DNA from: a virus
Lineage: Duplodnaviria > Caudoviricetes
Virus record (IMG/VR): IMGVR_UViG_3300030055_000003
Direction: 5' to 3' (one strand)
DNA length: 64,000 nucleotides
Shown: positions 9,691 through 62,432 of the stretch, piece after piece
How positions within the stretch are numbered: position 1 is the first letter of the stretch
How the letters are laid out: each line of letters opens with the position of its first letter
Position numbers and translations under genes: made by a program
The notes under the pieces: generated by a model
The model's database searches: none
Seen by the model: only the letters and a program-made list of their open reading frames with translations
Told to the model about the DNA's origin: nothing

Positions 9691-10119
9691 TTAATCTTCA
9701 TATTTACATTTATTAATAGCTAAATTCAATCCTTTTAACAGTTTTGCATCTTGGTTTATTTCTTCTCTAGTATATCCCAAACACTCTAAAGTGTCGCTAA
9801 TATCTCCAGTATAACAATATTCATGGTTTGACAACTCATAACTAAACATATCTAATATATAGCCAGTTCCGTCTGTATCGTTGTTTACTTCTTCTTTTCT
9901 TTCTACCTCGTGTCTTGCTAATATATCATCAAAAGCTTTTTCGTCTGATTTTTTCATATATCCACCAGCACCTATAGAAATTATTTTATCGGTGTCATTT
10001 TCTTTTAATCCTAACTTTTCCATACCCTCAGCAAATTGTTTGTTACTGAATGCAAACATTAGTGGAAAGTCGTTTATTTCCTTTTGATGTTGTTCCTTTA
10101 ATACTGAATACTTATTCAT
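9691..10119 (-). CDS. Conserved hypothetical phage protein
   Basis: FAFSNKQFAEGMEKLGL...MFSYELSNHEYCYTGD; GGAG RBS. Confidence 0.75.
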   Translation of the reverse strand: MNKYSVLKEQHQKEINDFPLMFAFSNKQFAEGMEKLGLKENDTDKIISIGAGGYMKKSDEKAFDDILARHEVERKEEVNNDTDGTGYILDMFSYELSNHEYCYTGDISDTLECLGYTREEINQDAKLLKGLNLAINKCKYED

Positions 10120-35715: not shown

Positions 35716-35716
35716 T

Positions 35717-35842
35717 ATGAAATGTGATAACTGTCAACATGAAAGAGTTTGTATAATGTATAAAGAGTACATATTAAAACTTGAAAGAAGTGGTGTAGAA
35801 ATTACAATTGATAAATGTAAAGAATTTGATGAAGTCGAATAG
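35717..35842 (+). CDS. 41-aa Cys-rich protein
   Basis: MKCDNCQHERVCIMYKEYILKLERSGVEITIDKCKEFDEVE. Confidence 0.6.
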   Translation: MKCDNCQHERVCIMYKEYILKLERSGVEITIDKCKEFDEVE

Positions 35843-36239
35843 CAGATACTTGAGAAAGATTTGACTATAAAATAAATTAAAACAACTAATTGATATTAAC
35901 GAGAACCTTATAGATGTTACAGAGAAGTCGTGAGAAATATCTATAACCTTGTAATATTTTATATTTATCTATGGGTTTAAATAATATATGAGGACTAACA
36001 CTCATTCCCCAGAGTAATTTTCAGTTACTCGGTACTCCTTGAGGGGACGTTAAAATAATATTCAAGGCAAGGTTAGAAAACAGGCTCACTAGCTGAGGAA
36101 ATTATAATGATTAATTCGGTCACACCCCTGTATAAAAAATAATAGTGAACGCTTACCATTAGTCCGATAGGGACGTTAAATCTATTTTTATTTAGATGTT
36201 ATCGTAGCATGCCAAAAACGGAATAGATAACAAGTGTAT

Positions 36240-36690
36240 CTATTAAGCAATAAAGTAAATGTCGTTTCAAGATTAGGTATTTAACTTTGCTTTATAATGG
36301 TTTTATGTTTACCAAAACTTGAATAGGATTGATAATCTGAAAGAAAACATATGATACAAAACGCTGGTCAATATGCGTTTAATAAATGGTTGATTGGATT
36401 GAATAGATGGAGACGTTTTAGTTGTACCATCGAGACTAATTAGTCACTCTAGATTAATTAGATGTTGAAGATAGGCTTTACGCCAGTGATTAGGGAGTTG
36501 ACATAGGTAATTCTTCCGTAGATATATGTAATAGTCTATATTAAAAACCTACTATCAGAAAATTTCTAAGACAGGATTAAGGAAATGCGATAGCTATTCG
36601 TTAACTGGAAAAGCTTCCGATTATATGATACTCGAAGTACAAGAGTATTACCCTATAGAATTAGTGGACATAACCATACGGATAGGGATT
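36240..36690 (+). ncRNA. Candidate large structured ncRNA (ROOL/GOLLD-like setting; family not established)
   Basis: ORF-free, GC-enriched, many nested helices (e.g. 36359/36380, 36406/36431, 36436/36461, 36504/36551, 36628/36648, 36651/36687). Confidence 0.5.
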
Positions 36691-37014
36691 TTAAAAATAA
36701 ATTAATAAAATAAAGTAGCAATAAAATCACATATATAAATATAACAACCTCCTACAGTTTTTATAAAAATGTGTGATTTTATTGGTGTTTTATTACACTA
36801 TGTTCCAAGTGATGATACTTGGTAAAAACTAAATATAAATAACTAGAATTATTTCCAGTAGCACTCTTAGGATAGTTAGTGCTTTACAATTAGACTTCCT
36901 CATTTAATTGAATATTTATTATTAGCAATACAGCTAAGATGTGATTTTAGGATATTTTCACATTTATCAACAAAATACCTCATTTAATAATAAATTAAAA
37001 AGTGAGGTAATAAA

Positions 37015-41960: not shown

Positions 41961-41964
41961 TGTG

Positions 41965-42083
41965 ATATAGGATAGATAAGAAAGTCATGAGTCTTATTAA
42001 TAAGTGAGTGTTCCGAAACTCATTTCCTATATTCTAAATAATAAATCGGAATAAATTAAATGCAATCGGAGGTAATAAATATT
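41965..42083 (+). ncRNA. Three-way-junction leader RNA, copy A
   Basis: Outer stem 41965-41972/42025-42032, hairpins ATAAGA/TCTTAT and TGAGT/ACTCA; loop TTCCGA complementary to TCGGA(A/G) at 42046 and 42066 (RBS). Confidence 0.7.
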
Positions 42084-43045
42084 ATGGGGAAAGGTCAATT
42101 TTGGACAATAGAAGATGAAGAATTTTTAAAAGAAAATTACATATATTTATCGAAAGAAGAATTAATGAATAAATTTAATAATAGGACTTGGAAGGGAATA
42201 AGACATAAGGCTAATGATATGGGAGTTAAAAAACAAAACGACTATGAAAATATTTCAAACGATGAATTATATAAAATAGAAGGTGGAATAAAATATAAAT
42301 TATGTAAGTGTTGTAGAAGATATTTACCTTTGGAATTAAAATATTTTCCAAAAGACAATACGTGTACAGATGGGTTTAGAAATATTTGCAAGGAATGTAA
42401 AGGTGAGAACTTTGAGATTTCAAATGCGATTGATTGGACAGATAAAGATGTGGAGTTATTAAAAAAGTTTATTCCAATATGATAAATGAAGATATTATTA
42501 AAGAATATTTTCCAAATAGAAAAATAAAACATCTAACAGATAAATCTTCGAAATTAGGATTAAAGAAAAATAAAGAGACTTTTAATAGATGTAGAATTAT
42601 GAGTTGTGAGGGCAGAATTAAGATATCTAATATTAGAAAAATAGATGGAATTTTTAAAGGAAGAAATAATCCAATGTATGAATCTAAAAGATATGGTAAT
42701 CTTAATCCTAATTGGCAAGGTGGGATTACTTCAGAAAAAAGCAGAATAATGAATACTGAGGAATATAAAAATTGGAGAAAACAAGTTTTTGAAAGAGATA
42801 ATTATACTTGTCAATGTTGTGGTGAGAAAACACATAATAATGAAGCTCATCACATAGATAATTTTGCAGACTATGAAGATAAAAGATTTGATGTTGAAAA
42901 TGGAATGACTTTATGTAAGCAATGTCATAATCCAAATCAAGAAGGAAGTTTTCATAATACTTACGGAACGTTGCACAATAATAAAGAACAGTTAGAAGAA
43001 TATATTGAAAGTAAAACAGATAAAGATTTAAAAGTCGCTAATTAA
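42084..43045 (+). CDS. HNH endonuclease with Myb-like HTH repeats, split over two frames at 42461-42482
   Basis: WTIEDEEFLKENY and WTDKDVELLKK/YSNM repeats, the second spanning the junction; NPNWQGG..VFERDNYTCQCCG..AHHI..NGMTLCKQCH HNH core; probable start ATG 42084. Confidence 0.8.
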
Positions 43046-52024: not shown

Positions 52025-53333
52025 TATAGGTAACATAATAAATTATTGCAGAACTATAAATGGTTCTAAAGGCTTTGATGATAGAAAATCCCAATTACAA
52101 TCTGAAATGACAACTGATTATAATATTGCTAGACCTAATGTAGTTACTAGATTCTCTATAATGGTCAATACAATTGATGGTAAAGATGTATATATCAATA
52201 ATTCAGATACTTTAATAAGAGGCGTAATTGATGTGAAAAGACATCAAACTGCTGATACTGAAATGGAAGAAACTGTACAGGTATATCCTAATCAGATTAA
52301 ATGTGGAGACTATTTAAAATTTAAAGTAAATGATACTGATGAGTTACGTGATTATATAATAACTTCAAAGATAGAAAAGAAACATGGATATGATGAAGGT
52401 GTATTTAAGGAATGCAATCATTTATTGAAGTGGGTGTATAAAGGAAATTTATATGATACACAAGTTATTATAAGTAATCAAACTAAATACACATTAGGAA
52501 TTTCAACGATTGTAGCAGGCATTACCGAAGGGGATAGTAGATATGTAATTACTTTACCATATAATTCTAAAACTCAAAATATTAAAGTTGGACAAAGATT
52601 TATATTTAATGCAAATGCTTGGAAAGTAACTCAAACTGACTTTGTAAGCGATGTGGGTTTATTGTCTATATTACTTGGTCAAGATAGTATCAATACTGAA
52701 ATTGATGATGTGGATAATGAAATAGCCAACAAATGGGAAATCAAACATAACTATGATACTACCTGTACAAATTCGTTAAGTGTTACTAAGGGTAGTGATT
52801 GTGGTTTAGTTTATTCATTTTTAGATAATGGTAATCCTATTGATAATAATTTAATAAATATAGAAAATACAAGTAACTTGATTTCAATTATTAAATCTAA
52901 TGATGGTAAAATAACTATTACTGGAGTTGATATTGGAACTGGAAGTTTTAAAATTAAATTAAATCTCACTGATGAAGTTAGAGAATTTATTGTGAATTTT
53001 GAAGTAGTATCTAGTATTGTTAGTCAAGTAAATTATGAAATCAAAACAAGTAATGGATACGTATATAGAACAAAAGAAGGTAGTACAATTTCAGCTATAA
53101 AATATGAAAATGGCGTAATTCAAAATAATTTAATAATTGAATATCAATTAGATTCATTTGGTCAAGATTTGTTAAATAAACAAAACATATCAATTGTTAA
53201 AAAAACAGACTCTAGTTTTACAATTAGAAATCTCAATATAAATGTATTAAAAACATTTACTATAACTATAATTGATAAAAACACAGGAGAAAAAATATTA
53301 AATAGTCAAACAATAACACTAAAAGGGATGTAA
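52017..53333 (+). CDS. Head-closure/neck protein with C-terminal Ig-like domains
   Basis: Start MSDIGN; KCNHLLKW, AWKVT; beta-rich C-term. Confidence 0.6.
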   Translation: MSDIGNIINYCRTINGSKGFDDRKSQLQSEMTTDYNIARPNVVTRFSIMVNTIDGKDVYINNSDTLIRGVIDVKRHQTADTEMEETVQVYPNQIKCGDYLKFKVNDTDELRDYIITSKIEKKHGYDEGVFKECNHLLKWVYKGNLYDTQVIISNQTKYTLGISTIVAGITEGDSRYVITLPYNSKTQNIKVGQRFIFNANAWKVTQTDFVSDVGLLSILLGQDSINTEIDDVDNEIANKWEIKHNYDTTCTNSLSVTKGSDCGLVYSFLDNGNPIDNNLINIENTSNLISIIKSNDGKITITGVDIGTGSFKIKLNLTDEVREFIVNFEVVSSIVSQVNYEIKTSNGYVYRTKEGSTISAIKYENGVIQNNLIIEYQLDSFGQDLLNKQNISIVKKTDSSFTIRNLNINVLKTFTITIIDKNTGEKILNSQTITLKGM

Positions 53334-53421
53334 AATTGTATGTTAATTATAAAGACATTAGGATTATTTCTAGTGTCTTTACATTAGTATATAAATAAAT
53401 TAATGTAAATTAAAAAAGATA

Positions 53422-53450
53422 TTGACAATCTTTGTTAAAGATGTTAATAT
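53422..53450 (+). promoter_or_regulatory. SigA promoter of leader B / endonuclease gene
   Basis: TTGACA-17-TAATAT with TG extension. Confidence 0.75.
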
Positions 53451-53456
53451 AAATTT

Positions 53457-53575
53457 AGGAAGATTACTTAGTATAAGGTTCGAAACTTATACTAAGGACA
53501 GGGTTTTTCATGTGCCTTTCTTTCTTTTATAAAATACACATGAAAATAAATTATAACATGAAGGAGATAATACAT
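53457..53575 (+). ncRNA. Three-way-junction leader RNA, copy B
   Basis: Perfect 11-bp hairpin 53467-53496 with GTTCGAAA loop; TTTTCATGTG (53505-53514) complementary to 53537-53546 and ACATGAA 53556-53562 at the RBS. Confidence 0.7.
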
Positions 53576-55207
53576 ATGAATGAAAAGGAATATTTAGAAT
53601 TTATTAAACAGTGGAAAGAAGAGAATAAGGAATTAATTAAAAGTGGTAAGTGTAGAAAAACTTTTTTAGAATGTTTACCTAGGAAGTATGGAGTCGGTGG
53701 AAATAAAAATAAATTAGTTATTGATTGGATAAATTCAATTGGATATAATGTGTATTTTATATACGAAAATATTATAGGGTGGATTGAAATTATTAGTTAT
53801 AAAAAAGATAAAAGAATATTAAAAGTAAAATACAACAAATTTGAATCAGAGATAAATACTAATCAAATGTCAAACTGTAATATAGGAAGAATTATAGGAA
53901 AAATCACATCAGAATTCAAAATAGAAATTGGACAAACTTTTAAAGATAACAAAAGAGATATAACTGTAACTGATAAAGAAATTAGAATTAGATATAAAAA
54001 AGATGGTTCTTTGTGCAATGATAAATGGTACAAATACACTTGTAACGTTTGTAGTTGGAATGAAGGGTGGATGACAGAAGGAGATTTATTAAGAAAAGAA
54101 AAACGAGGATGTTCATGTTGTTCTGGGAAAACACTTATAGAAGGTATTAATGATGTAGCTACAATATCACCTTGTATAGTTAAATATTTTCAAGATGGTT
54201 ATGATGAGGCTAAGAAGTATACAAAATGGGGAAGTGGAAACCCTGATAATCCAAAAGGTTATATCTATCCTATCTGTCCTGATTGTGGAAGAGTTAAAAA
54301 AAAGAAAACTAATATTGGTTATATTTACAAATCACATTCAATAGGGTGTTCTTGTAGTGATAATATTTCAAAAGGGGAAAAATATGTTTTTAGTTTATTA
54401 GAACAAATAGGTATAAAATTTATAACTCAATTATCAAAAAGAGAACAATCGTGGTGTAATAATTATAGATATGATTTTTATTTTCAGTTAGGTAATAAAG
54501 AAAATTATATAATAGAAGTAAATGGACAACAACATTACGAAGAAAATACTAATTTTGAAATGAATTTGGATGAACAGGTAGAGAATGATAAAAACAAAAA
54601 AGAACTAGCATTAAAAAATGACACAAAAGAAGAAAACTATATTATTATTGATTACAGAAAAGCTGATTTAAATTTGCTAAGAAAAAATATATTGAATGAT
54701 AAAATATTAAATGAATTATTTGATTTAAGTAAAATTAATTGGATAAAATGCTATGAATTTGCTTTGTCTAACTTAGTAAAAAAAGCTTGTGAACTTAAAA
54801 AACAAAATCCTAAGATGACTACTACTGAAATAGGTAAATTAATGGGAGGATATTGTAGGCTTTCAATTCAAAAATGGTTAGAATCTGGTAATGAATTGGG
54901 CTGGTGTCACTATAATAAAAATGAAGAAATAAATCAAAATTATAAAAACAGTGTAATAAGAAATAAGAAAAATTATTCAAAACCAGTAGAAATATTTAAA
55001 GATGGAATTAGTCTAGGTTTATTCCCCTCAGCTAGTGAATTAGAAAGACAAAGCATAGAACTTTTTAAAGTAAAATTAATTAGAAGTAATATTACTTTAG
55101 TCTGCCAAGAAAAACAAAAGCATCATAAAGGTTATGAATTTAATTATTTAACACAAGAAGAATATGATAGAAGGAAAAATGAAGAAAATTTAAAACAAGC
55201 AATATAA
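53576..55207 (+). CDS. Free-standing Zn-ribbon + Vsr/DUF559-like endonuclease with NUMOD1-like C-term
   Basis: CNVC, CSCC, CPDCG; YRYDFYF..IIEVNGQQHY; HKGYEFNY; probable start 53576. Confidence 0.78.
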   Translation: MNEKEYLEFIKQWKEENKELIKSGKCRKTFLECLPRKYGVGGNKNKLVIDWINSIGYNVYFIYENIIGWIEIISYKKDKRILKVKYNKFESEINTNQMSNCNIGRIIGKITSEFKIEIGQTFKDNKRDITVTDKEIRIRYKKDGSLCNDKWYKYTCNVCSWNEGWMTEGDLLRKEKRGCSCCSGKTLIEGINDVATISPCIVKYFQDGYDEAKKYTKWGSGNPDNPKGYIYPICPDCGRVKKKKTNIGYIYKSHSIGCSCSDNISKGEKYVFSLLEQIGIKFITQLSKREQSWCNNYRYDFYFQLGNKENYIIEVNGQQHYEENTNFEMNLDEQVENDKNKKELALKNDTKEENYIIIDYRKADLNLLRKNILNDKILNELFDLSKINWIKCYEFALSNLVKKACELKKQNPKMTTTEIGKLMGGYCRLSIQKWLESGNELGWCHYNKNEEINQNYKNSVIRNKKNYSKPVEIFKDGISLGLFPSASELERQSIELFKVKLIRSNITLVCQEKQKHHKGYEFNYLTQEEYDRRKNEENLKQAI

Positions 55208-58072: not shown

Positions 58073-58159
58073 TAAGTTATAGAAATTAAAATTAAATATT
58101 GATAGTAGGCACTTTCGGGTGTCTATTCTTGAGTATTTAAATAAATTAATATAAAAGGA

Positions 58160-58612
58160 GTGCAGATAATGGATTATGGAAGTATTGAAGAATTTTATGC
58201 ACAGTTACAAAGAGATACTCTTCGAGAATTAGAAGAAATAGCAGTTAAAGTACAACAAGATATTAGATTATATTTCTTAGAGAATATCTATAATTATGAA
58301 CCAAAAGTTTATGAAAGAACTGACATGTTACTAAATTCATGCAAAGTATCGCCAGTACAAAATAAAAATAGTGAGTTTTATATTGAAATATACATAGACC
58401 ATGATACAGTACATGCAAATCCAGCTTGGTATGATGAATCTGAAATGGGAATATCTGTTGGAGACTACATGACACTTGATGAAGTCTCTGAGCATTTCGC
58501 ACTTGAAATGGGTAAAGATGCAGTAGGAACGGTCAATGAAGAATGGGAAAGTACAGGAAAGTTTATAAATGAAATGATGTCATTTTTACGTTCAAAATAC
58601 GATATGGTATAA
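58160..58612 (+). CDS. Tail-module hypothetical protein (HK97 gp10-like?)
   Basis: YEPKVYERT motif; after the tail tube. Confidence 0.5.
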   Translation: MQIMDYGSIEEFYAQLQRDTLRELEEIAVKVQQDIRLYFLENIYNYEPKVYERTDMLLNSCKVSPVQNKNSEFYIEIYIDHDTVHANPAWYDESEMGISVGDYMTLDEVSEHFALEMGKDAVGTVNEEWESTGKFINEMMSFLRSKYDMV

Positions 58613-62017: not shown

Positions 62018-62310
62018 AAAAACACCTCCTTTATAAAGTATTTTATTTTGGAAACAATAATATTTCTAATGTAAAATACTTTAAAGAAGATGGCAAAGAG
62101 TTATGAATGGATACAATATTCTATATTAATTTAGATATAATGTTTTATTTTAAATAGGTTTAGTTTCATTTTCATAACATTTCATTTTTTCCCTTTATCT
62201 ATTTTAATATAGTATGTTTATTATACCATAAAATTGGAAAACTGTAAAATTAGATATAAAATTTTAGGATTGATTATAAATTACTTGAAAAAGTGTTATA
62301 ATATAGATAT

Positions 62311-62432
62311 GGAAGGATAGATATATGAAGGGTTGCAAACTGGATTATATTGATAAGTGAATTTCGACCTCACTTCCTTTCTATTTTTATAAAATGGTCG
62401 AATAAATTAAATTATGAAAGGTCGAGATTGTA
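62311..62432 (+). ncRNA. Three-way-junction leader RNA, copy C
   Basis: Outer stem GGAAGGA/TCCTTTC, hairpin AAGTGA/TCACTT; loop TTCGACC(T) complementary to GGTCGAA 62396-62402 and AGGTCGA 62419-62425. Confidence 0.72.

Follow-up and report, generated by a model that had tools for sequence, protein, structure and literature searches.

A widespread three-stem leader RNA ahead of selfish-nuclease genes of phages, with a probable diverged member in an AT-rich jumbo phage

Introduction

Sequestration of the ribosome-binding site is a known control of T4-type homing-endonuclease genes (PMC2988022), and in the documented cases, I-TevI, I-TevII, I-TevIII, segB and Aeh1 mobE, it is brought about by simple local hairpins that contain the ribosome-binding site. 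A second system of similar layout is the int-alpA RNA motif (Rfam RF02996), a candidate RNA without an assigned function (Weinberg et al. 2017, PMC5737381). In our reading of the literature, no function was found assigned to int-alpA.

Two further RNAs are relevant because of their loops. The c4 antisense RNA of phages P1 and P7 (Rfam RF01695) is cut out by RNase P and uses two loops to target the icd/ant immunity operon. The dimerisation initiation site of HIV-1 is a kissing loop that serves as a packaging signal for the retroviral genome.

Here we describe positions 53457-53575 (+) of a 64,000-nt stretch of DNA from a virus of the Caudoviricetes (IMG/VR record IMGVR_UViG_3300030055_000003), which is referred to as the window throughout. 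The phage carrying it is an AT-rich jumbo phage from peat; the protein encoded directly downstream of the leader is recorded on contigs of up to 283,734 bp, and the DNA occurs in 24 metagenome runs from peat, from which it may originate. An earlier note, made from the letters alone, had described these positions as one of three structured leaders in the window (here copies A, B and C, with 53457-53575 as copy B) and had proposed that a loop pairs with two places further downstream, one of which overlaps the Shine-Dalgarno (SD) sequence. This description stands. We consider it likely, with a probability of roughly 60%, that the transcript of a free-standing homing-endonuclease-like gene has 53457-53575 as its 5' leader, and that this leader is a diverged representative of a conserved class of leader RNAs.

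Results

Position and structure of the copy B leader

Copy B lies between a sigma-70-type promoter and the start codon at 53576. The promoter (53422-53450, +) combines TTGACA at 53422-27 with a TG-extended TAATAT at 53445-50 across a spacer of 17 nt, with 10 of 12 matches, and from its position transcription is predicted to start at about 53457; in related leaders, a TATAAT lies 6-9 nt ahead of the first stem. The minimum free energy (MFE) structure of the copy B core is a three-way junction in which a stem P1 encloses two hairpins, P2 and P3 (-20.5 kcal/mol). For the complete leader, the RNAfold MFE differs and has the pyrimidine tract paired with the SD over a long range. The fold of the whole 141-nt copy B leader has z = -3.0, a level reached by 1 of 200 shuffles.

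The 5' strand of P1, AGGAAGA (53457-53463, +), pairs with the 3' strand UCUUUCU (53519-53525, +) both in a descriptor scan and in the core MFE, and P1 covaries in the family. The descriptor was loose and served as a lead only, with many false matches in AT-rich DNA; it also picked up copy A and one related leader, L002. After P1 comes a U/A-rich tail at 53526-36 (UUUAUAAAAU); a U-rich tail at this place is part of the consensus of our covariance model R2 and is common in the family. A terminator scan of 53300-53650 found no terminator-like site and no GC-rich stem with a T-run directly after P1.

P2, hairpin 1 of the earlier note, occupies 53467-53496 (+). Its 11-bp stem is perfect, as had been claimed, with CTTAGTATAAG (53467-77) pairing with CTTATACTAAG (53486-96) around GTTCGAAA (53478-85). 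The loop, GUUCGAAA, is 8 nt long and reads G-UUCGAA-A, with a self-complementary hexamer at 53479-53484. This hairpin is present in the RNAfold MFE of the leader and has -12.3 kcal/mol alone; its 30-mer occurs once in the window, where 0 matches are expected in shuffles. The statement that copy C carries GGTTGCAAAC at the position equivalent to this tip was also correct.

P3 (53500-53518, +), found in the descriptor scan, is a weak hairpin with the stem AGGGU/GCCUU, and its loop UUUUCAUGU (53505-13) is the anti-RBS loop, called X below. That this second hairpin is weaker in copy B was borne out by its 5 bp, two of them G-U, at -2.6 kcal/mol compared with -6.4 kcal/mol in copy A. Two sites downstream are complementary to the loop. 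The first, X' (CACAUGAAAA, 53537-53546, +), is a potential decoy: the reverse complement of TTTTCATGTG (53505-14) is identical to CACATGAAAA (53537-46), giving the 10 Watson-Crick pairs already reported and a duplex of -11.4 kcal/mol. The second, X'' (53556-53566, +; ACAUGAAGGA at 53556-65), overlaps the SD AAGGAG (53561-66). Here, the earlier note had seen 7 nt complementary to ACATGAA (53556-62); the match is real and grows to 10 bp, 8 Watson-Crick and two G-U pairs, reaching 53565, covering AAGGA of the SD and giving -10.0 kcal/mol.

The genes served by the leaders

Copy B precedes a free-standing homing-endonuclease-like gene of 543 aa (53576-55207, +) with Zn-ribbons, a Vsr/PD-(D/E)xK-like core recognised by motif and a NUMOD-like C-terminus. 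The protein matches the phage homing-endonuclease families PHROG 4538, 9084, 559 and 7140 and has 631 relatives, one of which is called a 'very-short-patch-repair endonuclease' by one source; a Pfam search gave no match. A paralog in the window, 42% identical, starts at ATG 62433 behind copy C. A search of viral contigs with the single protein of the copy B gene returned no close relatives, and a collection of cultured phages contained no near-identical DNA and, by protein, one distant match only, in a Clostridium perfringens phage.

Leaders with the same P1/P2/P3 architecture were found ahead of some 33 nuclease genes, from no fewer than four unrelated families. The genes behind the leaders encode HNH, GIY-YIG, LAGLIDADG, DUF4379/CapR/NUMOD and DUF2726 nucleases, together with a few helix-turn-helix proteins. 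As the nuclease families are unrelated, the leader is best seen as a module of selfish nuclease cassettes rather than of one gene family. Two overlapping open reading frames, 42084-42482 and 42479-43045 (+), make up the split HNH endonuclease gene that follows copy A, with the HNH domain in the second.

A conserved leader class absent from Rfam

These leaders form a widespread class of three-stem leader RNAs of phage selfish-nuclease genes that is absent from Rfam. From the 5' end, the layout is the P1 5' strand, a junction, P2, a junction, P3 with loop X, the P1 3' strand, a U/A-rich tail, X', X'' in the SD region and the start codon; in leaders of an AT-rich clade, a motif AATAAATTA stands between X' and X''. 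The canonical consensus reads P1, GA-UAG, P2 (6 bp), AAGUC(AU or GC)GAG, P2', UGAU, P3 (starting AAG...) and P1'. Scanning viral contigs with the canonical P2-loop pattern yielded 14 distinct structured leaders, while among the 80 loci listed for the pattern AAGGATAG..TRATAAG there was no true member.

A covariance model was built from a gap-free seed of five sequences (A8) and rebuilt from its own matches (A9), giving models R1 and R2. The MAFFT leader alignments (A2, A4, A5, A6 and A7) were left out of the pair counts, with their 3' half out of register. Across 27 distinct relatives, in an alignment that was fitted to the model's structure, 95.6% of cells held standard pairs, compared with 63.4% in shuffles, and 17 of the 19 pairs had changes on both sides. 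The covariation score, again for an alignment fitted to that structure, was 0.871 compared with 0.248 when shuffled (0 of 500 reached 0.871), and slid partners gave 0.08-0.18.

With model R2, the core of copy A (41963-42039, +), a canonical member ahead of the split HNH gene (ATG 42084), scored 72.8 bits (E 2.8e-14), and the core of copy C (62308-62389, +), ahead of the paralogous nuclease gene (ATG 62433), scored 47.1 bits (E 3e-8). A fourth copy of the same phage, L379, lies outside the window ahead of the paralog P0009 and scored 38.0 bits (E 4.7e-7). Scans with Rfam 15 of copy B, copy A, the window, related loci and viral records showed no family that detects any of the leaders.

Some other structured elements were seen along the way. 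At one related locus, L044, a weak leader-like match (2654-2726, +; R2 17.7 bits, E 0.27) with the junction letters GG-AUAG and UGAUAA lies directly 3' of that locus's nuclease gene and may head the next gene. The viral contig L161, which also bears a canonical leader, has an RT-9 RNA (Rfam RF03080, 66.6 bits) at 9901-10012 (+). The only real Rfam match in the window is a drum RNA (RF02958; 55.9 bits, E 9e-8) at 36245-36355 (+), in the non-coding region 35716-37014, a gene-free stretch of 1.3 kb that is GC-richer and highly structured in appearance; drum is described as an orphan motif with 'sophisticated' features (PMC5737381).

Copy B as a derived variant

Copy B itself matched model R2 at full length (53455-53532) with 16.1 bits and E 0.64, no better than a few chance matches in the window. 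This low score is mainly due to junction letters that depart from the consensus: before P2, copy B has GA-UUA in place of GA-UAG, and before P3 it has GAC in place of UGAUAAG. As the model score alone is not significant, its place in the class is based on architecture, loop-target code and descent. In architecture, P1 closes P2 and P3, the promoter stands at the start of the core and the nuclease gene follows just downstream. As for descent, a 63%-identical ortholog of the copy B gene is preceded at the same position by a canonical leader, L378 (R2 44.3 bits, E 1.6e-8), whose promoter, P1, tail, motif and SD can be aligned with those of copy B. Ahead of a 79% ortholog, the leader L376 is 94.2% identical to copy B, compared with 83.2% for the coding sequence, and the two letters by which its P2 differs from that of copy B make up one compensatory change from a G-C to an A-U pair. 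Copy B is thus a derived variant, with P2 lengthened to 11 bp, changed junction letters (UUA, GAC) and a weak P3. The low score, the off-consensus junction letters and the weak P3 stem also mean that it could be a decaying copy.

A loop-target code of P3

Every P3 loop was paired with every downstream region in 31 leaders. Pairing of a leader's own loop with its own downstream region had a mean of -9.2 kcal/mol (z = -2.46 compared with unrelated loops), and the own loop was the best of all in 12 of 31 leaders and held ranks 0-2 in 26 of 31. For copy B, the own loop was the second-best partner of its downstream region when set against 28 unrelated P3 loops of relatives. Two separate sites of at least 5 nt were present in at least 24 of the 31 own pairs, compared with 7.2% of cross pairs, a count that misses copy B only because of its two G-U pairs. 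The decoy site X' lies 28-52 nt and X'' 10-21 nt ahead of the start codon, and the two are similar in pairing strength.

The letters of the loop itself differ freely among leaders, including copies A, B and C and L379 of one phage: UUCAUGU in B, UUCGACC in C and UUCCGA in A, with UCUCCAAU, ACUAACC and UUUCCCAAA in the leaders L001, L027 and L161. In nearly all copies, the loop fits its own decoy and ribosome-binding site; as G-U pairs are tolerated in these matches, the code points to RNA pairing and not to protein operators.

From these features, the function of the leader is most likely that of a translational brake on the nuclease. The leader RNA would begin at the host-type promoter and fold into the P1/P2/P3 three-way junction, upon which the P3 loop UUUUCAUGU would be able to pair either with the decoy X' (53537-46), 20 nt downstream, or with the SD region X'' (53556-65). 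Pairing with X'' would hide the ribosome-binding site, so that translation of a potentially harmful nuclease would be held down, and the decoy would set or switch the share of P3 loop that is left free. Both the repression of translation and the role of the decoy are what we infer from the pairing. Since pairing with the decoy is no weaker than pairing with the SD site (-11.4 compared with -10.0 kcal/mol), the default in cis may leave the SD open, in which case the leader would be a weak brake or a switch.

A phage-wide motif and alternative roles of the leader

The motif AATAAATTA of copy B (53545-53553, +) lies between the decoy and the SD. In the window, AATAAATTA(A/T)(T)AGAA has 54 copies, a 3-fold enrichment over the 16.6 expected (for example at 58140, 58809, 35347 and 49799); they are mostly intergenic, co-oriented with genes and usually 25-32 nt ahead of start codons. 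The motif may be a phage-specific promoter, a candidate role suggested by its placement. Two blocks made of a hairpin plus AATAAATTA, at 53348-53383 and 58113-58155, are 81% identical over 43 nt; one lies at the end of the gene before copy B and the other at the end of the gene before that at 58160, and they look like a shared terminator/promoter junction. Just after another copy of the motif, and outside the leader class, 36709-36794 (+) forms a long stable hairpin (-31.7 kcal/mol for a 141-nt stretch, z = -4.5) with ACCUCCU, a perfect anti-Shine-Dalgarno sequence, in its loop.

A candidate promoter at this place opens the possibility of a T4-type timing device, in which the anti-RBS leader would be present on early transcripts from the host-type promoter and limit their translation, while late transcripts would start at the motif, be free of the leader and be translated. 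Such an arrangement is documented for I-TevI, segB and mobE (PMC2988022), and both the enrichment of the motif at a set distance ahead of many start codons and its position between X' and X'' in all leaders of the AT-rich clade are what such a device would call for. However, this reading depends on the motif being a promoter, for which it is a candidate only, and it leaves the decoy and the self-complementary P2 loop unexplained. The motif is also absent from GC-richer members of the family, so a timing device cannot explain the class as a whole. We regard it as possible, though on balance unlikely.

Somewhat more doubtful is a small RNA acting in trans in the manner of c4, with the core released as an RNA of about 70-80 nt, either because transcription terminates at the U-rich tail or because the RNA is processed, and its P3 loop repressing transcripts that carry the SD, including leaderless ones from read-through or from the phage promoter. 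Like c4, the leader is a small structured RNA directly upstream of its target in one transcript, and loops match two sets of sites, one over the ribosome-binding site; c4 RNA shares a transcript with its targets and acts by blocking a ribosome-binding site. The copy B core begins at a promoter, transcripts starting at AATAAATTA would have X'' without the leader, and a U-run directly follows P1 in the family consensus and in several members (T6 in L184 and L150). In contrast, copy A and L137 are without a U-run, the terminator scan finds none in copy B, and a branched structure closed by P1 is unusual for an intrinsic terminator. c4 also differs in its target, the icd/ant immunity operon and not a nuclease, and in having two loops, and RF01695 gave no match to the leaders at E up to 10. 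A mention of c4 RNA is found in PMC8198154.

Self-complementary tips of P2

The earlier note had read the tip of hairpin 1 as a tRNA-like T-loop, with a possible role in a tertiary contact or as a signal for RNase P/Z processing that sets a small RNA free. The loop of copy B does hold the T-loop pentamer UUCGA, closed by a G-C pair, but it has 8 nt instead of 7, and among the homologous leaders the pentamer recurs only in the 94%-identical L376, with most homologous P2 tips breaking the U..R-A pattern of T-loops. There is no tRNA-like context either: ARAGORN called no tRNA-like gene in the window, and the tRNA/tmRNA search found none. What is conserved is the palindromy of the loop. Canonical members have AAG-UCAUGA-G or AAG-UCGCGA-G, copy B and L376 have G-UUCGAA-A, copy C and L027 have G-UUGCAA-A, and GUCGAC is found in L021, L090 and L379, GUCAUGAC in L024 and L061, G-UAAUUA-A in L011, UAGCUA in L044 and G-UUAUAA-A in L378. 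A 6-nt palindrome between non-pairing purines is present in 10 of the 12 types of P2 loop, compared with 1.43 expected (0 of 20,000 shuffles reach 10), and a 6-nt palindrome in only 1 of 30 P3 loops. Likewise, the pattern scan had allowed central AC, AU, GC or GU, and 14 of 14 structured matches carried AU or GC. The T-loop reading is accordingly highly improbable, and no feature of the letters asks for a small RNA to be released by RNase P/Z.

Six consecutive letters have no way of pairing with one another inside a single loop, so that pairing between two molecules is the simplest reading, and since self-complementarity is kept where UUCGA is not, the tip would be a site of loop-loop pairing between two RNAs rather than of a T-loop contact. 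It is possible, judging from these letters, that P2 loops join two copies of the same leader. The HIV-1 dimerisation initiation site likewise has a 6-nt self-complementary loop, unpaired purine flanks and a sequence that varies by lineage while the symmetry is kept. The difference is that the HIV-1 site is a signal for genome packaging, whereas a dimerisation of nuclease leaders is suggested by sequence.

The least probable reading, that X, X', X'' and the P2 palindrome are DNA operators bound by the nuclease or a repressor, can draw on I-TevI, whose promoter is repressed by I-TevI itself at an operator similar to the homing site (PMC2988022), and on sites that vary between paralogs with different proteins, but it is at odds with X, whose reverse complement is found in X' and X'', invariably lying within a hairpin loop, with X'' coinciding with the SD in every case, with G-U wobbles accepted at matching positions, with stem covariation that is not required of a protein site and with one design serving at least four unrelated nuclease folds.

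Discussion

Among described RNAs, the closest in layout is int-alpA, for which five true RNAs from Comamonas, Klebsiella and Acidovorax genomes were compared; in E. coli K-12, Sakai and CFT073, no example of RF02996 was found. Both have a three-way junction, in int-alpA of the order P1, UAG, P2, GAAAA(G), P3, P1', where some members also carry a U-run after P1. Int-alpA and the canonical members of the nuclease leader class have the junction letters UAG and GA(A/U)AAG in common, and in both the P3 loop has two complementary sites further downstream, of which the second falls on the ribosome-binding site. They differ in P2, which has 2-7 bp in int-alpA and 6-11 bp with a purine-flanked self-complementary hexamer in the nuclease leaders, and in setting, as the nuclease leaders are found in low-GC phages ahead of homing endonucleases. 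Copy B stands further apart, being without both junction consensus elements (UAG and the GAAAA type). The RF02996 model (gathering score 35.8 bits) gave no match at E up to 10 on copies A and B, 21 related loci and five whole viral records, and model R2 in turn gave no score to any of the five int-alpA RNAs. As each model is blind to the other's RNAs, we file the class as a variant of the int-alpA kind and not as a member of it.

With the T4-type hairpins (PMC2988022), the nuclease leaders would share the occlusion of a nuclease gene's SD by structure in the leader RNA, and in both a phage promoter may let some transcripts escape. In place of a local hairpin containing the ribosome-binding site, however, the nuclease leaders use the distant loop of a junction hairpin, in pseudoknot or kissing style, and they add a decoy site and a second conserved hairpin. 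They are, moreover, a portable class found across many nuclease families.

The translational brake could be extended to include the P2 loops. Each cassette would then have a private RNA circuit of two codes, in which leaders form homodimers whose two P3 loops divide between decoy and SD; repression would rise with the concentration of the same transcript, making a dose-sensing, self-limiting brake. The four leaders of one phage have four hexamers (UCAUGA, UUCGAA, UUGCAA and GUCGAC) and four P3 loops, and so such circuits would stay orthogonal in one cell. We offer this extension as speculative and consider it rather unlikely. A search of the literature found no paper on such dimerisation in a phage messenger leader, nor on the present leader class.

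Homing endonucleases are needed in small, well-timed amounts, as the carrier genome is otherwise harmed, and their control has so far been known mainly from a few T4 hairpins. If the proposed brake is true, a portable leader with its own anti-ribosome-site code in each copy would be a general solution across at least four unrelated nuclease folds. The design would suggest a function for the orphan int-alpA motif, whose layout is alike, and the purine-flanked self-complementary loop would be a candidate element for dimerisation between RNAs in the leader of a phage messenger.
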